Positions 2,941 to 32,000 of a stretch of DNA of 32,000 nt are shown piece by piece. Each line of letters starts with the position of its first letter. Position 1 is the first letter of the stretch. The stretch is from the NCBI RefSeq assembly GCF_000179635.2, contig NC_014833.1, positions 1,950,001 through 1,982,000 of the forward strand, written 5' to 3'. This DNA is from Ruminococcus albus 7 = DSM 20455 (GTDB lineage: Bacteria; Bacillota; Clostridia; Oscillospirales; Ruminococcaceae). The notes under the pieces were generated by a model. It ran no database searches. It saw nothing but the letters and a program-made list of their open reading frames with translations, and was not told where the DNA came from. The position numbers and the translations under genes were made by a program.

Positions 2941-5919
2941 ATGTGCATGACCTATGACCTTGGTATCGATGTCGGTTCAACAACTGTCAAAACAGTCATC
3001 GTTCACAATGGCGAATTTATATATAACAGATATGAAAGGCATTTTTCACGGGTAAGGGAAACTGTGGCAGAGCAGCTCAAGCTTATACGCAAAAGCTATC
3101 CTGATGATAAGTTCCGTATAGCTATTACCGGTTCAGCAGGACTCGGTATAGCAGAAGCCTGCGGCATTCCCTTTGTACAGGAGGTATTTTCTGCTTTCGT
3201 TGCTGTAAATAAGACTTATCCTGATGCTGATGTTGTTATCGAACTTGGCGGTGAGGATGCTAAGATAATATTTCTCACCGGTGGTGTGGAACAGCGTATG
3301 AACGGTTCTTGTGCCGGCGGTACGGGCGCATTTATTGATCAGATGGCAGGACTTCTTGGTGTTACTCCCGATGATATGAACGATCTTGCACTGAAAGCTG
3401 AGAAAACATATCCGATCGCTTCACGCTGTGGTGTTTTTGCAAAGTCAGATATACAGCCTCTGCTGAATCAGGGTGCAAAAAAGGAGGATATATCCGCTTC
3501 AATATTCCAGGCAGTTGTTGATCAGACGGTATCTGGTCTGGCACAGGGCAGGAAGATAGAAGGAAAGGTGCTTTTCCTTGGAGGTCCTCTTACTTATCTC
3601 AGCGCATTACGTGAAACGTTTAAAAAGACCCTTTCACTTTCTGAGGATAATGCAATACTCCCTGAAAGATCATCGTGCTATATCGCTTTCGGTGCTGCAC
3701 TTCATGCTCATGACCTTTCAGAGGAGATGACTATTGATGAAGCTCTCGACAAGATAGCCAATGCTAAGACTAACGATAATATAGTAGTCGGCAGGAGACT
3801 TTTTGAATCTCAGGCGGATTATGCTGAATTTATCGAGCGTCATAAGAAATCCGATCTTAAATATGAGGATATCAAGACCTATGAGGGTGATGCTTTCCTC
3901 GGCATAGATGCTGGCTCTACAACGACTAAACTTGTGCTTATAACACCTGATGGCAGACTGCTGTATCAGCATTATTGCTCAAATCAGGGTCAGCCCCTTG
4001 ATATCATAGCTTCTAAGCTGAAGGAGATCTATCGCCTTGCAGGAGATAAACTGAATATCAGAGCATCGGCTGTTACAGGTTACGGTGAGGAACTTATAAA
4101 GGCTGGTCTTGGTGTTGATTTCGGTATCGTTGAGACTGTGGCTCACTATAAGGCAGCAGCTTATTTCTGTCCCGATGTTGATTTTATAATAGACATTGGC
4201 GGACAGGATATCAAGTGCTTCAAGATCAAAAATAATGCTATCGACAGCATTATGCTTAATGAAGCTTGTTCTTCAGGCTGCGGATCATTTATACAGACTT
4301 TTGCAGGTGCTATGGGATATGATATCGCTAATTTCGCACAGCTGGGTCTTTTTGCAAAGGCACCTGTCGAACTTGGTTCACGATGCACAGTATTTATGAA
4401 CAGCTCTGTAAAACAGGCACAGAAGGATGGTGCTACCGTCGAAGATATCTCTGCAGGACTTTCATCATCTATCATCAAGAACGCTGTTTACAAAGTTATA
4501 AGGGCTAAGTCCATTGATGAACTGGGACAGAATATCGTAGTTCAGGGCGGTACATTCCTTAATGATGCTGTGCTGCGTTCATTTGAGCAGGAACTTGGCA
4601 GAAATGTTATCCGTCCTGCTATCGCCGGACTTATGGGTGCTCTTGGATGTGCACTGTTTGCTAAGGAAAAGTCAGAGGGTTCACTTGATCATTCTGGCAT
4701 AATCAGCAGGGAAGCTCTTGAAAACTTCTCATACACTGCTAAGGCTTTACAATGCGGTGGCTGCGGTGCACACTGTAACCTCACAGTTATACGTTTCGGT
4801 GACGGTCACAGATTTATATCGGGCAACCGCTGTGAAAAAGGTGCAGGTATAAAAATAACGGACCGCACTGAAAATATGATTGAGTATAAGTACAATTATA
4901 TCAGGGAGCTTGAAAATAAAAAAACTCGCATGAAGCCTATTGCTAAGGTGGGATTGCCTCTGTGTCTTTCATATTATGACCTTATGCCGTTTTTTGCACA
5001 GCTCTTTACTGACCTTGGTTTTGAAATCGTATTTTCTGAAGAATCTACCAGAGATACTTATTATAAAGGTCAGCAGACTATCCCTTCGGATACTGTCTGC
5101 TATCCCGCTAAACTTGCTCATGGTCATATCGAGAGCCTGCTTGAAAAAGGTGTAGATTTCATTTTCTACCCCTGCATGAGTTATAATATAGATGAGGGTG
5201 GTTCTGATAACCATTTCAACTGTCCTGTTGTAGCTTATTATCCCGAACTTCTTAAAGCAAATAATGACAAGCTGAATGAAGATAACTTTATTGCACCGTA
5301 TATTGATCTTAATAATAAGACCCATGTTGCGAAGGCTATAGCAAAGGCACTTAATAAATACGGTATCTCGGCTAAACAGATTATGAGCCTTCTTAACCGC
5401 GCATACTCAGCGCAGATAGATTTCCGTCGTGATATCAAGGGTAAGGCTCAGGAGATAATACGTGAAGCACGCAGTAAGGGTCAGAAGATCATCGTTATTG
5501 CAGGCAGACCCTATCATATAGACCCTGAGATCAACCATGGAATCCATAAGCTTATAGCTTCACTCGGCTTTGCGGTCATTACTGAGGACAGCGTGGCAAG
5601 TCTGGTGGACACTCCCGCTCTTGATGTACTCAATCAGTGGACTTATCATTCCAGAATGTACCGCGCGGCTAAATATGTATGTGAAAACGATGATATGCAG
5701 CTTGTACAGCTTGTCAGCTTCGGCTGCGGTATAGATGCTGTAACTACCGATGAGGTCAGGGCTGTGCTTGAAGAACAGGGAAAGCTCTATACTCAGCTTA
5801 AAATAGACGAGATAACCAATCTTGGTGCAGCTAAGATAAGGCTTCGTTCCCTTGCTGCAGCACTTGAGGAAAAGGATGCTCAGGCATCGCGTGCTGCAAA
5901 GCAGACTTCGGCTGTCTGA
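2941..5919 (+). CDS. Tandem BcrAD/BadFG (HgdC-like) ATPase domains fused to an HgdA-like (DUF2229-type) module; an acyl-CoA dehydratase activase-related protein
   Basis: Two acetate/sugar-kinase-fold starts: LGIDVGSTTVK at aa ~7 and LGIDAGSTTTK at aa ~320. Each is followed by a cluster-bridging Cys region (GSCAGGTGAF / EACSSGCGSF). Cys motifs CGGCGAHC, DTVCYPAK and SFGCGID occur in the C-terminal third. GGAGG RBS 8 nt upstream. Confidence 0.85.
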   Translation: MCMTYDLGIDVGSTTVKTVIVHNGEFIYNRYERHFSRVRETVAEQLKLIRKSYPDDKFRIAITGSAGLGIAEACGIPFVQEVFSAFVAVNKTYPDADVVIELGGEDAKIIFLTGGVEQRMNGSCAGGTGAFIDQMAGLLGVTPDDMNDLALKAEKTYPIASRCGVFAKSDIQPLLNQGAKKEDISASIFQAVVDQTVSGLAQGRKIEGKVLFLGGPLTYLSALRETFKKTLSLSEDNAILPERSSCYIAFGAALHAHDLSEEMTIDEALDKIANAKTNDNIVVGRRLFESQADYAEFIERHKKSDLKYEDIKTYEGDAFLGIDAGSTTTKLVLITPDGRLLYQHYCSNQGQPLDIIASKLKEIYRLAGDKLNIRASAVTGYGEELIKAGLGVDFGIVETVAHYKAAAYFCPDVDFIIDIGGQDIKCFKIKNNAIDSIMLNEACSSGCGSFIQTFAGAMGYDIANFAQLGLFAKAPVELGSRCTVFMNSSVKQAQKDGATVEDISAGLSSSIIKNAVYKVIRAKSIDELGQNIVVQGGTFLNDAVLRSFEQELGRNVIRPAIAGLMGALGCALFAKEKSEGSLDHSGIISREALENFSYTAKALQCGGCGAHCNLTVIRFGDGHRFISGNRCEKGAGIKITDRTENMIEYKYNYIRELENKKTRMKPIAKVGLPLCLSYYDLMPFFAQLFTDLGFEIVFSEESTRDTYYKGQQTIPSDTVCYPAKLAHGHIESLLEKGVDFIFYPCMSYNIDEGGSDNHFNCPVVAYYPELLKANNDKLNEDNFIAPYIDLNNKTHVAKAIAKALNKYGISAKQIMSLLNRAYSAQIDFRRDIKGKAQEIIREARSKGQKIIVIAGRPYHIDPEINHGIHKLIASLGFAVITEDSVASLVDTPALDVLNQWTYHSRMYRAAKYVCENDDMQLVQLVSFGCGIDAVTTDEVRAVLEEQGKLYTQLKIDEITNLGAAKIRLRSLAAALEEKDAQASRAAKQTSAV

Positions 5920-8389: not shown

Positions 8390-10645
8390 ATGAGTACCAA
8401 AGGTATGGAAAACAGATATGTACGAGATAAGACGCGCATTATTGCACGCCGCAGAAATGCCGCAAATATGCTATCGGCATTGATCTGTACGGCTGCAGTA
8501 GGCATCGGTTTTTCGGGACATCTTATATATAAGTCATATTACGCTGTTGGCTGGCATACCCATTCAGAAGGTACTTACTATATATCTCCAGAGACACATG
8601 AACGTGTCACAGGCTATCAGATGATCGACAATACCTGTTATCTGTTTGATGATGAAGGCATTATACTCCCGGCAGGATGGCAGAAGTTCCGCGGTGATAC
8701 CTACTATCTTGGTGATGATGGTATCATACAGCGCGGTACTATCGAGATCGATGGTGTTAAGTACTATTTTTCCACCGAATCAGGTATTTTCAGGACGGGT
8801 CTTGTTGATATCAACGGTGATGAGTATTATTTTGATGAACACGGTTTTCCGGGGTCTGGTTTTTCAGAAGATTCGTATTTTGATGAAAATGGTAAACAGC
8901 GTCGCGGCTGGGTTAATGTTGGCGGTATTCAGTATTATTTCAAAAACGACGGCAAGATGGCTGTTGGGTTTTATGAAATAGATGATAATGTCTACTATTT
9001 TGATAAAGACGGAAAGATGGCTACTGATTGGAAAGTCATTGACGGTAAACGCTATCTATTCAATGAGGATGGTGTTCTTCATCATGGCTGGATCAAAAAG
9101 GACGGAAATTACTTTTATGCCGATGCTGAAACCGGAGCTTGTGTTACTGGTTTCTTTAAGATCGAGGATAAGACTTATTATTTTGATAAGCGTGGAGAAA
9201 TGGTAAAAAACTGGAAAGAGATAGGCGGAAAGACGTATCATTTTTCCAGTGACGGTGTAATGACTATCGGTTGGTATGAGGAAGATAACACCAAGTACTA
9301 TTTCAGTGAAAAAGGTGTAGCCGCAAAGGGCTTCAATAAAATAGGTGAAGACTACTTCTATTTTGATAAGAATTTCAAGATGAGGACAGGTTGGCAGACA
9401 ATAGGCGGTTCAAAGTATTATTTCGGACGAGGCGGTGTTGTAGCCAACGGCTGGTTAAAACTTGAAAGCGGTGAGTTTGATCCTATAACCTATGACCCAA
9501 TAATGCTGAGATACTACTTTTACCCCGATACTCATGCTGCAGCGTACGGATGGGCAACTATAGGTCGTGCTGCGTCTGATGTCAAGCTTTTCAAGAAGGA
9601 TATGTCTGATTTGAATAAGTTTGAAAATCTATCCTACGATAAACTGTCAGCTCTGAACAGTGATGAATGGATGCGCTATGATGAGCTGAAAGAAAAGTAT
9701 AAGGATAATACATTAAATAAGTTCCAGAAGGACGTGTATGATAAATTCGGCAGTGATGTGCTTGGCAATTATTATTTTTACAGTGATAACACCCTTGCCT
9801 ATGGCTGGATAACCGTTGGTGATTATCGTTTCCATTTTGATGAAAAAACAGGCAAGAAGTCGCTTGGCTGGCAGATCATTGACGGTAAACGCTATTACTT
9901 TGGTGAAACAGGTGCTGCCTGCACAGGAGAATTCAACGGAAATGATGAAAACTATGTCTTTTCTTCTGACGGTGTCCTTTCTGATGGTATTGTCAAGCTT
10001 GACGGTCAGATCAAGTACAAAAAAGGTGATTCGGACTGGCTCACCGATGTTTTCCATACCGAAGGAAATAAGACATATTACTTCGATGCTGACGGAAATG
10101 CAGCTATCGGTTGGACGGATATAAACGGAGAACGTTATTTCTTTAATGATGAAGGCGTTATGCATATCGGTGTGATCAACGATGATGGTAATGTTTATTA
10201 TCTTAGCAGAGATGGTATCGTTAAGAACAAGTGGGTAACGATCGACAGCGGCAAGATGTATTATTTCGGTGCTGACGGAAAGGCATATAAAGGCTGGAAA
10301 GATATCAACGGTACAGAATATTATTTCGGTGATGACGGTACCTTGCAGGAAGGCTGGACTACTATCGAAGAAAAGCGTTATTATCTTGAATACGGAGTCA
10401 TGCTAAGGGGTCCTATATTTATTAACGGTGAGTTGATCAATCTCGGTGAGAATGGATATGTGACCGAAGGCTGGATCAGCTGGAGCGGAAACAAGTACTA
10501 CAATCTCAAGGGTGGAGTTTCCGCCACAGGCTGGCAGGAGATCGACGGAAAACAGTATTATTTTGATGCTTATGGTGTACTCCTTACAGATACTGTTATT
10601 GATGGTATTACCCTGGGAGCTGATGGTTCAGCTGTAATTGAATAA
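8390..10645 (+). CDS. Membrane-anchored cell-wall-binding (choline/glucan-binding type) repeat protein, about 30 repeats
   Basis: The ~20-aa motif GW...(g)k.YYF..dG.m..G recurs throughout. N-terminal basic tail plus a TM segment, MLSALICTAAVGIGFSGHLIY. No catalytic domain recognised. Confidence 0.85.
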   Translation: MSTKGMENRYVRDKTRIIARRRNAANMLSALICTAAVGIGFSGHLIYKSYYAVGWHTHSEGTYYISPETHERVTGYQMIDNTCYLFDDEGIILPAGWQKFRGDTYYLGDDGIIQRGTIEIDGVKYYFSTESGIFRTGLVDINGDEYYFDEHGFPGSGFSEDSYFDENGKQRRGWVNVGGIQYYFKNDGKMAVGFYEIDDNVYYFDKDGKMATDWKVIDGKRYLFNEDGVLHHGWIKKDGNYFYADAETGACVTGFFKIEDKTYYFDKRGEMVKNWKEIGGKTYHFSSDGVMTIGWYEEDNTKYYFSEKGVAAKGFNKIGEDYFYFDKNFKMRTGWQTIGGSKYYFGRGGVVANGWLKLESGEFDPITYDPIMLRYYFYPDTHAAAYGWATIGRAASDVKLFKKDMSDLNKFENLSYDKLSALNSDEWMRYDELKEKYKDNTLNKFQKDVYDKFGSDVLGNYYFYSDNTLAYGWITVGDYRFHFDEKTGKKSLGWQIIDGKRYYFGETGAACTGEFNGNDENYVFSSDGVLSDGIVKLDGQIKYKKGDSDWLTDVFHTEGNKTYYFDADGNAAIGWTDINGERYFFNDEGVMHIGVINDDGNVYYLSRDGIVKNKWVTIDSGKMYYFGADGKAYKGWKDINGTEYYFGDDGTLQEGWTTIEEKRYYLEYGVMLRGPIFINGELINLGENGYVTEGWISWSGNKYYNLKGGVSATGWQEIDGKQYYFDAYGVLLTDTVIDGITLGADGSAVIE

Positions 10646-24324: not shown

Positions 24325-25800
24325 TCAGAGTCGAGCCGCTTCCTTAACGGCATTTATTACTGCCAGAGCTTTATTGCAGCTCTCTTCATATTCATTCTCA
24401 GGAACAGAATCTGCGACTACACCGCCGCCTGCCTGTACATAAGCCTTGTTATTTTTGAAAAGTACCGTGCGTATCGCTATACAGGTATCAAGTGAACCGT
24501 CAAATGCAAGATAACCAACTGTTCCTCCGTAAAGACCGCGCTTTGTAGTTTCAAGCTCGTCGATTATCTCCATTGCCCTTACCTTGGGTGCACCTGAAAG
24601 AGTACCTGCGGGCAGAACAGCCATCAAAGCATCCAGAGGCTTTTTATCGTCCTTTAGTTTGCCCTTAACGTTTGATACAAGGTGCATAACCTTTGAATAT
24701 CTTTCCACTACCATATAATCTGTAACTTCTACGCTGCCGAAATTGCTGACTTTACCTATATCGTTTCTTCCAAGGTCTACCAGCATGGTGTGTTCCGCTC
24801 TTTCTTTAGGGTCATTTACAAGACGCTGTTCGTTCGTGATGTCTTCATCATGAGTAGCACCTCGTTTTATCGTACCTGCGATAGGTCTTGTAACTACTGT
24901 GCCGTTTTCAACGCTTACCAGCATTTCGGGAGAAGCACCTGCAAAAGCGTAATCAGCGTGCTTGAAGTAGAACAGATACGGCGATGGATTTGTTGAACGC
25001 AGCATTCTGTACACATCAAAGCTGTCGGGTGGATTATCTATCTCAAATCTCTGGGATGGTACTATCTGGAAGATATCACCGTCTTTGATGTATTCCTTAG
25101 CCTTGCGAACATTATCAAGGTACTGCTCTTTTGTGATGTTTGATCGTACCTCGATATCGTCGGGCATCGGTCGTTTCTTTTTGGTTTCAGGCTGATAGCT
25201 TTTAAGTGCCACTACTATATCAAGTGCTGTCTGTTCACAAGCTGCATATTTAGCATCGATATCATCTGAGGAATTAATATTGAGGATAATAACAGCCTTG
25301 TTACTCAGATGGTCATAAGCCACCAGCTTCTCAAACATGAACAGGTCAGCATCAGCCATACCAAGATCATCATGAGGTGGGTTATTCAGCTTTTTTTCCA
25401 TGTATCTTACCATATCGTAAGCGAAATATCCCATAAGACCGCCTGTGAGTTTCGGATAACTGCCGAATCTTGGCGACTTATGCTCCTCGATTATTTTTGA
25501 AAGAAAACCGATAGGGTCATCGATCTCCTTCTGCACTGGAGCTTTGCCTGCCTGCTTTATTGTCATTATACCGTTTCTGAGTTCATATTCCGCTTTCGGA
25601 TCTATGCCGACATAGGAATATCTGCCCCACTTGTCCTTATTGTCTACCGATTCAAGTATGAAGCAATCCTCATACAGTTCGTGCAGACAGTTGAACAGTT
25701 GTATAGGTGTACAGCTGTCCATCAGCAGTTCATAGAATACAGGAACTGTTTTATAGCTTTCCAGATATTTTTTTACGTCTTCAAGATTAGGATACAGCAT
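24325..25800 (-). CDS. trpE: Anthranilate synthase component I
   Basis: CFILESV...GRYSY N-terminal regulatory motif and a C-terminal chorismate-binding region (GTLSGAPKVRAMEII, GLYGGTVGY). The ATG at 25800 has a GGAGG RBS. The track start at 25836 is a TTG. Confidence 0.92.
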   Translation of the reverse strand: MLYPNLEDVKKYLESYKTVPVFYELLMDSCTPIQLFNCLHELYEDCFILESVDNKDKWGRYSYVGIDPKAEYELRNGIMTIKQAGKAPVQKEIDDPIGFLSKIIEEHKSPRFGSYPKLTGGLMGYFAYDMVRYMEKKLNNPPHDDLGMADADLFMFEKLVAYDHLSNKAVIILNINSSDDIDAKYAACEQTALDIVVALKSYQPETKKKRPMPDDIEVRSNITKEQYLDNVRKAKEYIKDGDIFQIVPSQRFEIDNPPDSFDVYRMLRSTNPSPYLFYFKHADYAFAGASPEMLVSVENGTVVTRPIAGTIKRGATHDEDITNEQRLVNDPKERAEHTMLVDLGRNDIGKVSNFGSVEVTDYMVVERYSKVMHLVSNVKGKLKDDKKPLDALMAVLPAGTLSGAPKVRAMEIIDELETTKRGLYGGTVGYLAFDGSLDTCIAIRTVLFKNNKAYVQAGGGVVADSVPENEYEESCNKALAVINAVKEAARL

Positions 25801-25844
25801 AATGATAACCTCCATTTGTTTATTTTCCCGAAGCAAAATGGCAA

Positions 25845-26155
25845 TAAAAAAAGCCCCATCATCTCACATGACTTCTGTCATGGGACGATAGAACCGTGGT
25901 GCCACCCATTTTCCCGACAATAATATTGTCGGCTCACAAGGTACGCACTATCAGGAAACACCCTCAAGATCAATACCCTTCCGCACTAACGTAGGGAACA
26001 CGGCAGGAGATACTCGTAAATAACTTTAGCTCCGCTCCTCACAAACCCATTCATTGTATGCCCTTGTACTGTCTCGCACCTACCGACAGCTCTCTGATAC
26101 TCCCTCACACAACTACTTACTTTTGCTCACAGGATTTCGTATATCAAATTTTCTG
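25845..26155 (-). promoter_or_regulatory. T-box riboswitch leader, tryptophan-specific (specifier UGG)
   Basis: Minus-strand reading. Stem I elements GUAUCAGAGAGCUG...GGUGCGAG. Specifier-loop context GAA-UGG-G, with UGG at 26049-26047. T-box sequence AAAAUGGGUGGCACCACGG at 25912-25894. Terminator hairpin ending GGGGC plus U7 (25852-25846). Confidence 0.88.
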
Positions 26156-28483: not shown

Positions 28484-28516
28484 AACGCCCTCTCTTTTGC
28501 TTTTAGAGAGGGCGTT
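28484..28516. terminator. Stem-loop terminator between convergent genes
   Basis: Stem AACGCCCTCTCT/AGAGAGGGCGTT (12 bp) with a 9-nt T-rich loop, followed by TATATTGTCTT. Confidence 0.7.
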
Positions 28517-28562: not shown

Positions 28563-29519
28563 TCATTTATCATTACAATACTTTGTAATATCGATCGCCT
28601 TGTCACATATTTCCAAAGCAGCAGGACGGTGTGTTACGATAATGACTGTCTTATCTGTCATACTCCTGAGATTTTGAAGCAGTCTTTTCTCAGTAGCGGG
28701 ATCAAGTGCTGATGTCGCTTCATCAAGGAGCAGTACAGGGCTGTCGCTGAATATGGCTCTTGCTATAGCTATCCTCTGCATCTGTCCCTCAGATAGACCG
28801 GTGCCGCGCTCTCCTAGAAGGGTATCAATGCCGTATTCAAGTTCTGTTATGAAATCATCAGCGCAAGCGATCTGTAATGATCTGTTGATACGTTCATCAT
28901 TCTGCATATCTGACTTATCGGCAAATGCTACAACTTCACGTATTGAACCTGACATAAGCTGGTTGCCTTGAGGAACGTAAGCAAATAGTCTGTGCCATTC
29001 AGCGGACAGAGGTTTTGTTCCGTTATTATCGTTCATATAACGTTCTCCACTGTCGAGTTGGTATATGCTCATCAGCAGTTTCAGAATAGTTGATTTTCCA
29101 CAGCCGCTATGACCTGTGAACGCGATGAATTCTCCCTTGATGATGTCTATGCTGAAATCATTAAGCACAACGGGCTGGTCATCTTTAGATAATTCCGTGA
29201 TACTTTTGACAGCAGGAAAATATGTGAAGCCTGCATTCTTTAATCCGAATGATCTCAGCTCCTCAGAATAATACTTCCTGACAGTATTGATATCCAGTGG
29301 CTGCTTTTCACAGTCGCTGATAAAGTTTTCTATCTCCATGAGTCGCTCGGCACTGGCGGTCATAGCATAAAATCTCGGCAGATATCCAGTAATGTTGGCA
29401 AACGGTGCCTGTATCTGAGAGATAAGCTGAGTTACGGCGGTAAGAGTACCGTAGGATATTGTACCAAGAAGTATACCGTATCCGCAGTAGCAAACACCAA
29501 ACAGATACATTCCGTTCAT
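28563..29519 (-). CDS. ABC exporter, C-terminal fragment (last TM helices plus the nucleotide-binding domain)
   Basis: Walker A GHSGCGKST, signature LSEGQMQRIAIARA, Walker B LLLDEATSALD, H-loop VTHR. Its frame stays open for 24 codons upstream of the listed Met. Confidence 0.75.
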   Translation of the reverse strand: MNGMYLFGVCYCGYGILLGTISYGTLTAVTQLISQIQAPFANITGYLPRFYAMTASAERLMEIENFISDCEKQPLDINTVRKYYSEELRSFGLKNAGFTYFPAVKSITELSKDDQPVVLNDFSIDIIKGEFIAFTGHSGCGKSTILKLLMSIYQLDSGERYMNDNNGTKPLSAEWHRLFAYVPQGNQLMSGSIREVVAFADKSDMQNDERINRSLQIACADDFITELEYGIDTLLGERGTGLSEGQMQRIAIARAIFSDSPVLLLDEATSALDPATEKRLLQNLRSMTDKTVIIVTHRPAALEICDKAIDITKYCNDK

Positions 29520-29547
29520 TGCCAGACCAAAGCCGATATTGCAAAAA

Positions 29548-30294
29548 TTAGAAAAACGATTTTTTTTGCATTCTTGCTTTCTTGTGTTCTTTCATACGTT
29601 CTGTTGCTTCATCTTCTGTCTGCTGTTCGGCGGCAAATGAACGTATTATCATCATGCTGCCGATATGCTCCTGCAGGAATATACGCAGTTTGCCGTCACG
29701 TTCCTGCACTTGTTTATGGAGCTTTTTCAGTAACTTGCGGAATGCATAGGTCATAAGTAACATTAGTGCCCCGCACGGCAGAAGAATGCACGCAAACCTA
29801 CGGTCAAGTACTATCATCATTATCACAGCGCTTATCATTTTGACAGCCATACCTACCAGACCTGGTAGTATCTCAGTGTAGCTGTTGGATACAACTACTG
29901 TGTCATTTGTCAGTCTGTTGAGCCATTCACCCGAATGTACTGCACTCACACTGGCAAAGTCCTTTTGAAGGATATTATGCATAAGTCGTTTTTTGAATAT
30001 GTTTTCAAAAGTTGATCTGGTAAACTCATTCAGCCAGCGAATTATCGATCGCAACCCTATCTGAGTCAGCATAAGAATGACGGTAAGCAGTACATAGTAC
30101 CTGAATGCCCCTTTATTATGAGCCGTGGCACTGTCAACTATGTTTCGTAAAAACAATGCGTACAGAACTCCGCTTGCTCCAAGCATCGCCTGTACCAGCA
30201 TAAGTGCGAGAATATACAGCTTTTTATTTCCCGGTACAGAGTAAAGCCATTTTATCGCGTTATTAGTCATCTTTTCAGTTTTCTTTTCAGCCAT
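29548..30294 (-). CDS. ABC exporter, N-terminal transmembrane-domain fragment
   Basis: Carries the first four predicted TM helices of a type-I exporter. Ends ...ARMQKKSFF* right after the A8 run. An alternative ATG at 30270 gives an ATGA overlap with the upstream stop. Confidence 0.7.
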   Translation of the reverse strand: MAEKKTEKMTNNAIKWLYSVPGNKKLYILALMLVQAMLGASGVLYALFLRNIVDSATAHNKGAFRYYVLLTVILMLTQIGLRSIIRWLNEFTRSTFENIFKKRLMHNILQKDFASVSAVHSGEWLNRLTNDTVVVSNSYTEILPGLVGMAVKMISAVIMMIVLDRRFACILLPCGALMLLMTYAFRKLLKKLHKQVQERDGKLRIFLQEHIGSMMIIRSFAAEQQTEDEATERMKEHKKARMQKKSFF

Positions 30295-30701
30295 TTCGGT
30301 GTTCTCTTTGCTTTAAGGATAAAGGCGCGTACAGGGAAGAAATCACACCACAAATGTACATATATCCGATATCTGATATCTGTCATAGATATCTCTCTGC
30401 CGTTGCGTACTACTGCTGTCAGCACACCGATGATATTACGATCTGTTATCCCGTATTCTTTTGAGTATCGGTTATCTCCGCAGATCACATAGTCATCACT
30501 GCGTACTTTCAGTACCCTGTGAAGTACGTACTGTCCGCTGTCTCGCTTGTATAGCGGTACATCATACTTTTTCATCCTACCTTCTTTTTTCTCTATGATA
30601 AGTATATCCCTGTCCTGTCGTATCAGCGGTTTCATACTGTCGCCAACATTGGTATAGACAAGTCTTCCATCTCGATCTATCACATCTTCAAATTTAATCA
30701 T
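30267..30701 (-). CDS. Small S24/S26-family serine peptidase-like protein
   Basis: GDSMKP nucleophile motif near the N-terminus and a beta-rich core with VLHRVLKV. 144 aa with a hydrophobic C-terminal tail. ATGA overlap with the upstream gene. Confidence 0.7.
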   Translation of the reverse strand: MIKFEDVIDRDGRLVYTNVGDSMKPLIRQDRDILIIEKKEGRMKKYDVPLYKRDSGQYVLHRVLKVRSDDYVICGDNRYSKEYGITDRNIIGVLTAVVRNGREISMTDIRYRIYVHLWCDFFPVRAFILKAKRTPKWLKRKLKR

Positions 30702-31426
30702 TGCATACCCTCATAAGCTGTTTTAGCAGCTGATATATCCATGTTACAGCCAAGATTATACAGTCCGACCGAATCAGCAAGTTTGTCCACCAGATTTAGG
30801 GTCTTCATCATTTTAACAGCATCATCAGGTCGGTGGACCTGCTGCATGAGTATCGTATAAGCCTGTCCTGTGGTTACAGGTATTATATGGTTGTCAGCTG
30901 CTCTTGTCAGTATACAGATCGCTTTCAACGGAACTGAAATATTTTCTCCTAGTCGGTGTTTTCCGTTGTACGGTGTGCCAAACGCTGTCACACCTTTGTC
31001 AGAAATGTGAAGCAGAGGCTTATCGTCATTTACCATTACGGCACGATCGCCTAAATATTCTCTCCATAGCCTTGTATGAGTGGATTTACCAGTACCTGAC
31101 TTCGCTGTGAACAGGTATCCGACTCCGTCCACTGCAATAACAGAACCGTGAAAAAGTATAGTGTCATAGTTTATCAGTTCTTCCGCGATCTTGCGGTATA
31201 CAGCTAATTCTTCAAGATAACTGTCAGTGAAATGCCTAACGGGTAAACCCTCTATTTTGTCTTCTCTCTCAGACTTTTCCCGTTCAAAGTCAATATCTGA
31301 TCGTGTAGTTGTAATGGAATAGTCTGCAGGCTCGTCTGTCAGATAGTCTGCACAGTAATCGTGTACTTCTTTGTATATTGAATTTATCTCTGCAACTTTG
31401 TCTGCTATCTTATACCTATTTACCAT
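30698..31426 (-). CDS. HPr-kinase-C-domain-like P-loop protein (putative peptide/small-molecule kinase)
   Basis: HGSVIAVDGVGYLFTAKSGTGKSTHTRLW mirrors the HPrK/P motif G..v.v.G.GvLi.G.SG.GKS. 242 aa. Overlaps the upstream gene by 11 nt. Confidence 0.65.
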   Translation of the reverse strand: MVNRYKIADKVAEINSIYKEVHDYCADYLTDEPADYSITTTRSDIDFEREKSEREDKIEGLPVRHFTDSYLEELAVYRKIAEELINYDTILFHGSVIAVDGVGYLFTAKSGTGKSTHTRLWREYLGDRAVMVNDDKPLLHISDKGVTAFGTPYNGKHRLGENISVPLKAICILTRAADNHIIPVTTGQAYTILMQQVHRPDDAVKMMKTLNLVDKLADSVGLYNLGCNMDISAAKTAYEGMQ

Positions 31427-32000
31427 ACTTGTTCACAGCCTTTATGATATTTTTGAGATAGTTGCGTCGTATCACCAGGATCCTTCCCCAGCGGTATACG
31501 ATCCCGATAGGATAAAGAACAGGGCATTTGTTTACAAATTTTACCGAACGTTTCATATAATCGACATTCGGAAACATATTTCTTAGGATATAGCCCGACT
31601 TGGTCTGATCCTGCAGTGCCTTTTTCATAGTGTTATCAAAGTTTCCGTATGTGCCTGCTGTCAGGTAGTACATCAGCATTTTTTCTTCATTCTCGGATAA
31701 GTCGGGAAGGTTCTCGGATGAAAACACCTTATCGGCAAGTGTACGCCGTTCTTTTTCAAAATCTTCTATCTTAAGCTTTCTGCATTGTTCTGTTATGTAA
31801 TCAAAGTCAAGAGTATCACCCTTGCTTTTCAAGAAGACATAGCAATCCAGAAGCGAGCGTATACCCGTACCGCTGCTGTTATAGTGTTTCCATTCATGTG
31901 CAGTCATGTATACATAAAAATCTTCGTCAGAAAAATGATAACTGTACTCACATCCTTCATCTTTCAACAGCATACTCTTTGTGTCAGCGTAATAACTGTA
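31416..32000 (-). CDS. Nucleotidyltransferase-family protein (NTP_transf_5 / PF14907-like), C-terminal part; the 5' end lies beyond the window
   Basis: The frame stays open to position 32000 upstream of the listed Met (…YSYYADTKSMLLKDEG). The HEWKHYNSSGTGIRSLLDCYVF segment resembles the conserved H..KH....G.lr.l.D block of that family. This is a memory-based call. Confidence 0.6.
   Translation of the reverse strand, partial: YSYYADTKSMLLKDEGCEYSYHFSDEDFYVYMTAHEWKHYNSSGTGIRSLLDCYVFLKSKGDTLDFDYITEQCRKLKIEDFEKERRTLADKVFSSENLPDLSENEEKMLMYYLTAGTYGNFDNTMKKALQDQTKSGYILRNMFPNVDYMKRSVKFVNKCPVLYPIGIVYRWGRILVIRRNYLKNIIKAVNKYGK

Follow-up and report, generated by a model that had tools for sequence, protein, structure and literature searches.

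What are the closely packed genes at the far end of a 32,000-nucleotide stretch of the Ruminococcus albus 7 genome (hereafter, the window) for, and do they belong to a known peptide pathway? The genes in question lie on the minus strand at window positions 28563-32000 and encode a nucleotidyltransferase, a P-loop protein, a small serine peptidase and an ATP-binding cassette (ABC) exporter. Genome mining of anaerobes flagged only the sactipeptide locus Rumal_0164 in R. albus 7 (PMC4289311), and a survey of rumen lasso peptides reported HPr kinase, PqqD and nucleotidyltransferase genes near putative or 'incomplete' lasso clusters, a separate system going unrecognised (PMC7533575). We found no description of the present system in the open-access literature, although this absence is not proof. 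The evidence assembled here points to a pathway of the RiPP type (for peptides made ribosomally and modified after translation) that depends on a RiPP recognition element (RRE), is related to the lasso systems of Firmicutes and is both widespread and uncharacterised, and for which there is a candidate family of substrates. We consider it probable that in gut and rumen Clostridia these genes form a module that matures and exports peptides under the guidance of a leader, and that the R. albus 7 locus is one copy of it.

A preliminary description of the window had reported co-directional minus-strand genes joined by overlapping stops and starts, and both the coordinates and the overlaps proved exact, except that the minus strand of 28563-32000 holds five open reading frames (ORFs) and not four. 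The NTP_transf_5 nucleotidyltransferase gene is represented by its 3' part (31416..32000, minus; 194 codons), its frame staying open to base 32000, where it is cut by the window edge. Its stop overlaps the start of the gene for the 242-aa P-loop protein, a putative ATP-dependent phosphotransferase of the ScmC family (30698..31426, minus), by 11 nt (31416-31426). This gene in turn overlaps that of the 144-aa S26-type peptidase, the putative leader peptidase (30267..30701, minus), through an ATGA at 30698-30701, and the peptidase and exporter genes overlap by 28 nt (30267-30294), or by 4 nt if the second ATG is used. The exporter is present as an N-terminal fragment of 248 aa with the transmembrane domain (29548..30294, minus) and a C-terminal fragment of 318 aa with the last transmembrane helices and the ATPase (28563..29519, minus). 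A G+C-rich, terminator-like hairpin at 28490..28512, between the convergent exporter and nitroreductase genes, is the probable end of the operon. Beyond the window edge the operon could be followed on a contig (L001) that is the reverse complement of the window with 0 mismatches over 11,303 bases, and on which the whole operon of five genes is seen: PqqD (the RRE protein), NTP_transf_5, the ScmC/HPr kinase (HPrK)-like P-loop protein, the S26-type peptidase and the ABC exporter. The window region is the distal four-fifths of this five-gene operon. All four proteins looked up are exact matches to R. albus 7 proteins ADU22220-ADU22223, for which the source names are 'hypothetical protein' or 'SynChlorMet cassette protein ScmC', 'S24/S26 family peptidase' or 'Signal peptidase I', 'PqqD family protein' and 'nucleotidyltransferase'. 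A role in anti-phage defence was considered and rejected, PADLOC giving no hits beyond generic ATPase matches to the exporter.

The first two products of the operon score above their Pfam thresholds. The NTP_transf_5-like block noticed in the window fragment is confirmed by PF14907 with 46 bits against a threshold of 31.2 (profile positions 174-248), and the full-length nucleotidyltransferase of 367 aa (L001 8908-10011) scores 148 bits with the same model; the G[GA]x(n)SDNDIL nucleotidyltransferase motif lies in the 5' part of the gene, outside the window. The PqqD gene, likewise outside the window (87 aa, L001 8648-8911), overlaps the nucleotidyltransferase start. Its product scores 49 bits with Pfam PqqD (cut-off 23.4), and its best NCBIfam match, below threshold, is the lasso_PqqD_Strm chaperone (E=9e-9). 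The preliminary description had placed any PqqD/RRE gene and any precursor gene upstream, past the window edge; the former is there and the latter is absent from the locus.

The 242-aa protein carries the P-loop motif GVGYLFTAKSGTGKST and had been called HPrK-like. Its P-loop and superfamily motifs bear this out, but it stays below the family thresholds: the sole Pfam hit is to Hpr_kinase_C (PF07475; E=0.0038, 17.2 bits vs 33.3), and the NCBIfam HPrK/P equivalog (TIGR00679) gives 19.9 bits vs 240. The best NCBIfam match is ScmC (TIGR04249; E=1.2e-7, 31.4 bits vs a cut-off of 125), and the precomputed Pfam record for the protein is PF27840 ScmC. Among 107 members of the P-loop family, 13 match Hpr_kinase_C at E<0.01 and no other family is recurrent. 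Profiles built from 21 and from 107 diverse homologues match phosphoenolpyruvate carboxykinase (PEPCK; PDB identifier 1ii2) with E=0.025 and HPrK with E=0.14-0.5, and the alignment to HPrK (PDB identifier 1jb1) and PEPCK 1ii2 spans HGSA..G..FTA.SGTGKST...NDD. The segments H93-G-S, S110-G-T-G-K-S-T and N133-D-D are invariant or nearly so in the family, the invariant residues being H93, G113, K114, T116, D135, P137 and G155. An HG ahead of the P-loop GxSGxGKS, together with a downstream DD motif, supports membership at the superfamily level only. We therefore regard the 242-aa protein, as far as its sequence can tell, as belonging to a distinct family in the HPrK/PEPCK-like P-loop superfamily and not as an HPr kinase. 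This family is large: clustering at 50% identity gives 7343 clusters, and 866 of these reach E<1e-30.

The 144-aa protein, noted earlier as an S24/S26 serine peptidase on account of its GDSMKP motif, turned out to resemble the S26 and not the S24 type. Residues G20, S22, M23, P25, H61, R62, G75, D76 and E82 are invariant in 23 diverse homologues, and a homologue profile matches signal peptidase I (PDB identifier 4nv4; E=8.7e-4), human SEC11A (E=7.7e-3) and also SEC11C. The SM.P, HRV and GDN segments align with SEC11A such that S22, H61, D76 and E82 correspond to SEC11A S56, H96, D116 and D122 (counted by hand on the profile alignment). An AlphaFold2 model (predicted local distance difference test score, pLDDT, 83.5) shows a core folded as a beta-barrel and, at the C-terminus, two basic helices, and the leading Foldseek matches in the PDB are SipA, SEC11A, LexA, UmuD' and SpsB (prob 1.0, TM ~0.5). 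The family thresholds are not reached: NCBIfam sigpep_I_arch (TIGR02228) matches with E=7.9e-6 and 25.8 bits vs 51.85, and Pfam gives no hit, PF00717 included. An S24 Ser/Lys enzyme is ruled out by the invariant His at the general-base position and the lack of a PF00717 hit; among fused relatives tested against PF00717, only P0272 passes (24.9 bits vs 23.3). Neither a hydrophobic N-terminus nor a membrane anchor precedes the catalytic domain. The protein is thus predicted, from sequence and model, to be a Ser/His peptidase of the Sec11/SipW kind, MEROPS S26B, that is soluble and lacks an N-terminal anchor. Searches returned 2966-5669 homologues; where these carry a source name, it is that of an S24/S26 peptidase from Ruminococcus or Oscillospiraceae. 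S26 signal peptidases dedicated to a substrate encoded beside them, such as SipW/TasA of B. subtilis and SipA of S. pyogenes pilus operons, are comparable in having a Sec11/SipW-type fold (the best structural match is SipA, PDB identifier 4n31, followed by SEC11A) and in sharing an operon with a specialised secretion substrate. They differ in that the module peptidase lacks the N-terminal anchor and has the basic C-terminal helices, and in that its presumed substrates have no Sec signal peptide and would leave via an ABC exporter; unlike SipA, it keeps the catalytic Ser and His invariant.

The exporter had been described as having a complete motif set, which holds (Walker A, signature, Walker B and H-loop of the ABC ATPase), but its gene is not in one piece. 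One added A in an A8 homopolymer (29560..29567, minus; T8 on the plus strand) causes a +1 frameshift that breaks the gene into two ORFs; the 248-aa fragment ends at the frameshift-induced stop, and the true frame continues from the A-run. Pfam ABC_membrane matches the 248-aa fragment with 91 bits and ABC_tran the 318-aa fragment with 92 bits. These two domains do not share one intact frame in the window, whereas they do so in five near-identical metagenome contigs (L002, L003, L005, L006, L008) that have A7 and an intact exporter ORF of 576 aa. Among the contigs compared at this site, A8 is found in the window and in the Logan contigs L001 and L004, and in several further Logan contigs the exporter is called as two ORFs of 248 and 318 aa. 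This difference in length among near-identical strains looks like slipped-strand variation, and could be an on/off switch or a strain-specific loss. The top NCBIfam matches of the exporter are type I secretion and bacteriocin exporters, all under cut-off, and no C39 peptidase domain was found in it by the Pfam and NCBIfam searches.

If these genes work together, they should stay together in other genomes, as the preliminary description had supposed for four of the families. We examined 80 loci from species-representative genomes of Ruminococcus, Oscillospiraceae, Lachnospiraceae, Kandleria and others. With K for the P-loop gene, Q for PqqD, P for the peptidase, T for the exporter and N for NTP_transf_5, the order K-Q-P-T-N is seen at 20 loci and the order of the window, Q-N-K-P-T, at a few; R. 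flavefaciens has the same five genes in the order ScmC, PqqD, peptidase, ABC, NTP_transf_5. At 37 loci with >=5 kb on both sides of the P-loop gene, its partners are PqqD (30/37), the peptidase (27/37), NTP_transf_5 (21/37) and the exporter (18/37), with all five genes at 12/37; these counts, from single-sequence phmmer searches, are lower bounds. The peptidase and exporter genes are nearly always adjacent, in both gene orders. Members of the module are also found fused: an S26-like peptidase with NTP_transf_5 (L101 1068-2561), and ScmC-like proteins with radical S-adenosylmethionine (SAM) proteins or with Peptidase_S24 (among P0276, P0385, P0390, P0382; P0272, P0367). The supposed co-occurrence is upheld by these counts, by the two gene orders and by the fusions. 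The close relatives fetched are mostly from rumen and gut Clostridia. The only extra families that recur in the 80 loci are a radical SAM/SPASM maturase (8) and large surface proteins (11).

A candidate family of substrates could be identified from a paralogous cassette (L019-L022; 78% identity), which is preceded by two tandem 40-aa ORFs with a common N-terminal half. A search with these ORFs, and then with a hidden Markov model (HMM), against 18,226 small ORFs found 56 precursor ORFs at 38 loci (50 distinct sequences; E-values down to 3e-18). About half of the related loci carry precursor genes, 1-6 each, with six in tandem at L040. They are mostly on the module strand and mostly 0-1.5 kb 5' of the first module gene, though in some genomes they lie 2-8 kb off (L029, L047, L067), and a Shine-Dalgarno-like (GGAGG-like) motif is found at 41/50 distinct precursor ORFs. 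The leader is of fixed length, 23-24 residues, and its consensus reads M-K-E-K-Y(-20)-x-x-P(-17)-E-M(-15)-E(-14)-[IV]-[VI]-x-F(-10)-x-x-E(-7)-D(-6)-[VI]-I(-4)-T-T-S(-1). D(-6) is present in 49/49 leaders, I(-4) and S(-1) in 48/49 each, F(-10) in 44/49 and T(-2) in 31/49, and a lasso-like YxxPx[MLI] motif is found in leaders at related loci. The cores are hypervariable, 6-25 aa long (median 12), with a mean net charge of -3, and rich in Gly, Asp, Glu and Pro; one precursor of Kandleria (L067) has a core of ~95 aa. No model in Pfam or NCBIfam matches the precursor peptides, and the leader strings were not found in the open-access literature.

The radical SAM/SPASM maturase, for which the best NCBIfam match is TIGR04463 (sub-threshold), adjoins the module in exactly 8/80 loci (L029, L033, L041, L044, L079, L092, L094, L096). 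Cys-containing cores occur at 8/8 of these loci, and few Cys cores occur at other loci. This pattern recalls the SynChlorMet (SCM) cassette (NCBIfam TIGR04249-TIGR04251), which consists of ScmC, a PqqD homologue and two radical SAM/SPASM proteins. To our knowledge the SCM cassette is uncharacterised. The two systems are alike in pairing an ScmC or ScmC-like protein with a PqqD-type protein, in the radical SAM/SPASM proteins at a subset of the related loci and in the ScmC-radical SAM fusions. They differ in that the 242-aa protein reaches 31 bits against the 125 of the ScmC model, the window locus has no radical SAM gene, and the module adds NTP_transf_5, the S26-type peptidase and the exporter.

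Further features accompany the module and its precursors. MobC/NikA-like and resolvase genes stand beside the precursor-bearing paralogous cassette (L019 12959-15564), which suggests that this cassette is carried on a mobile element. The large surface proteins have Listeria-Bacteroides (Flg_new) repeats and are encoded just 5' of the precursor genes at 11 loci (L019 2357-7787; L056 4-2199; 9 more), one of them also having an FMN-binding domain. At >=12 loci, a low-complexity lipoprotein ORF rich in Ser, Thr and Glu (89-219 aa, with a lipobox) lies between the precursors and the first module gene (for example, L019 8088-8633; L027 7966-8625; L054 9484-9969; L066 9440-9946; L072 9604-9873). The position of this ORF is conserved but not its sequence, and the window locus lacks it; it could be an immunity or anchoring factor. 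Two R. flavefaciens genomes have in common a non-coding unit of ~110 bp 5' of the module (L026 ~9700-9985; L015 8840-9000), and in strain Y1 this unit is duplicated in tandem. The repeat unit upstream of the L015 and L026 modules showed no coding signal, and it may be a promoter or regulatory element. A distant variant is seen on plasmid pNP243 of Butyrivibrio fibrisolvens D1 (L103 1-11906), which has, in order, a P-loop protein, a 57-aa Cys-rich ORF, PqqD and an S24/S26 peptidase. The 57-aa ORF begins MKKAYVKPELKA and has a YVKPEL leader. The flanks, with GT2 and PssD/PssE glycosyltransferases, two nucleotidyltransferase genes, a second PqqD and a two-component system, hint at peptide glycosylation in this variant.

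For the catalytic steps, the cleavage site and the chemistry of modification, we infer the following scheme. The PqqD protein would bind the leader at Y(-20)xxP(-17)x[MLI](-15)E(-14), in the way that lasso B1 proteins bind YxxPxL. With ATP/NTP, the P-loop enzyme and the nucleotidyltransferase would tailor the bound peptide. In lasso pathways the K enzyme phosphorylates a precursor Ser and the N enzyme, which in some cases is joined to the B2 protease in a fusion, attaches hexose to the phosphate (PMC8498205); by analogy, a hydroxyl would be phosphorylated here and the phosphate then elaborated. The lasso target, a C-terminal Ser, is not general here, since the cores often have no hydroxyls and rarely end in Ser. 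The likeliest target would be the T-T-S triplet at the junction of leader and core, because it holds the only hydroxyls conserved in all substrates. The soluble S26-type peptidase, with Ser22/His61, would cut off the leader, probably after Ser(-1), since position -1 and often also -3 carry small residues, in keeping with the signal-peptidase rule. The ABC exporter would secrete the short acidic core, and the radical SAM maturases would be optional additions for Cys-containing cores. We further suggest, tentatively and short of calling it probable, that the module and its EDVITTS-leader precursors constitute a new RiPP class, in which an RRE and leader of lasso type are recombined with a soluble Sec11-like leader peptidase, HPrK/PEPCK-like and NTP_transf_5 enzymes install an undescribed phosphate- or nucleotide-linked modification, and libraries of short anionic peptides serve as signals or antagonists.

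Several observations weigh against this scheme. Cleavage following Ser(-1) would remove the proposed T-T-S target; if T-T-S is modified, then either it carries the modification only for a time, as a gate on cleavage or export, or the peptide is cut upstream of T-T-S, and the T-T-S modification step is the weakest part of the model. There is no Ser, Thr or Tyr in 12/48 cores, and just one core is Ser-terminated. The HPrK/PEPCK placement of the P-loop protein rests on weak hits, and its predicted structure has a pLDDT of 47 (only homologues of >=77% identity having been submitted). About half of the related loci, those of the R. flavefaciens type included, have no detectable precursor. In the R. 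albus 7 copy the exporter is frameshifted, and no precursor-like ORF is found in the 32-kb window or the 9.4 kb upstream (~41 kb).

The first alternative that deserves weight is that the module is a leader-dependent secretion system only, in which the RRE, the S26-type peptidase and the exporter act together like a peptidase-containing bacteriocin exporter in trans, and the P-loop protein and nucleotidyltransferase leave the final product unmodified; these two enzymes might put a transient modification on the leader, act as a gate on cleavage, have a regulatory role or confer immunity. Such an arrangement has a parallel in the ABC transporters that contain a double-glycine bacteriocin peptidase, which resemble the module in the short conserved leader, hydrophobic at -4 and acidic further upstream, in a half-transporter of the same type and in the removal of the leader at export, which for the module is inferred. 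The module differs from them in that its protease is a separate serine enzyme of S26 type and not an N-terminal C39 cysteine domain, in a T-T-S motif in place of G-G, and in the extra RRE, P-loop protein and nucleotidyltransferase. As expected of cargo, the cores conserve neither a residue nor a length (6-25 aa, and one of ~95 aa), the sole conserved hydroxyls (T-T-S) lie in the segment predicted to be removed, and the adjacency of the peptidase and exporter genes holds in both gene orders. However, no member of the module is more constant than the P-loop gene, which is fused to radical SAM maturases and to the peptidase, NTP_transf_5 is in the same Pfam family as the lasso tailoring enzyme PsmN (PMC8498205), and two NTP-using enzymes would be costly for mere export. 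We therefore think secretion without modification unlikely and prefer peptide maturation together with export.

A second alternative concerns only the R. albus 7 copy, which may be a decaying remnant that, with its precursor genes and its exporter lost, has no product. The leader HMM finds nothing in the window or in L001-L018 at E<0.1. An ORF of 42-56 aa at L001 8481-8651, the sole one in the 470-bp spacer upstream of PqqD, was considered as a precursor and rejected: it overlaps the PqqD start and has no leader similarity, and in the other loci with the same gene order, L023 and L027, no counterpart of it was seen upstream of PqqD. A plasmid collection contains no close P-loop homologue or paralogue, none from R. 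albus, and no leader match. The lack of a precursor within ~41 kb, this result from the plasmids, and the A8 run of the window, L001 and L004, with the same two-ORF split in several further Logan contigs, would all suit a remnant. Against it, the four non-exporter genes at the R. albus 7 locus remain intact and translationally coupled, with >98% identity across many rumen samples; slippage between A7 and A8 can be reversed, several cassettes are found in related genomes, and precursors can lie 2-8 kb off. On balance, a mere remnant seems quite unlikely. Given the missing precursor and the A8 frameshift, the R. albus 7 copy depends on precursors elsewhere or is losing function; it is an orphan and may be impaired.

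A third explanation, that the genes are the edge of an ordinary lasso-peptide cluster with its cyclase and B2 protease just past the window, is very improbable, even though the closest known systems are the Firmicute lasso clusters with K and N enzymes (paeninodin, pseudomycoidin). Those clusters and the module are alike in having a PqqD-type RRE, an HPrK-like P-loop enzyme, NTP_transf_5, an ABC exporter, a YxxPx[LMI] leader and frequent Thr(-2), and in a nucleotidyltransferase that is at times fused to the leader protease (in the module, at L101). The lasso chaperone is the best match of the PqqD protein, and homologues of the module's K and N are known lasso tailoring enzymes (PMC8498205, PMC7533575). 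However, what lies 5' of PqqD on L001 is an AT-rich spacer of 470 bp, a gene for an AI-2E transporter in divergent orientation, and the spoIIIA operon. Within 10 kb on either side of the operon there is neither an Asn-synthetase-like cyclase nor a transglutaminase-like protease nor a radical SAM gene, and no Asn-synthetase-like or transglutaminase-like gene is recurrent among the 80 related loci, in agreement with the earlier suggestion of a non-lasso cassette for peptide modification and export. The module thus lacks both the cyclase and the B2 protease that define lasso systems, and has an S26-type serine peptidase instead. Its cores are acidic, 6-25 aa long and rarely Ser-terminated, many having just 6-10 residues, and its P-loop protein is ScmC-like and under the Hpr_kinase_C threshold. 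A lasso-type ring acceptor was also considered: Asp or Glu is found at core positions 7-9 in ~69% of cases against ~58% expected from composition (hand count), which is no signal. The last explanation, that housekeeping genes for an HPr kinase, for a LexA-like or signal peptidase and for a drug exporter are neighbours by chance, as the generic public annotations might suggest, is scarcely credible in view of the overlapping stop and start codons, the fusions, a linkage kept across families and gene orders, the 19.9 bits of the 242-aa protein against the 240 of the HPrK/P equivalog and a peptidase with no membrane anchor upstream of its catalytic domain, and is already contradicted by the co-occurrence counts.

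Elsewhere in the window, a T-box leader (25878-26139, minus; Rfam RF00230, 109 bits vs a gathering score of 93) lies upstream of trpE (24325-25836), and the trp operon appears to be under tRNA-sensing control. This operon has a fused trpG-trpD gene (560 aa), and a chorismate mutase gene is found on the extended contig.

For R. albus 7 itself the significance of these findings is smaller, as its copy has no local precursor and a broken exporter. For the family as a whole, a large block of microbiome genes of unknown function gains a concrete substrate hypothesis through a defined precursor family, and the 144-aa protein is a candidate for a new type of leader peptidase for peptide engineering. 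The module also offers a way to find out what the ScmC and NTP_transf_5 families do, families that are paired with PqqD in several uncharacterised systems. Lastly, the hypervariable, multi-copy anionic cores suggest a part in strain-specific signalling or competition among fibre-degrading ruminococci.

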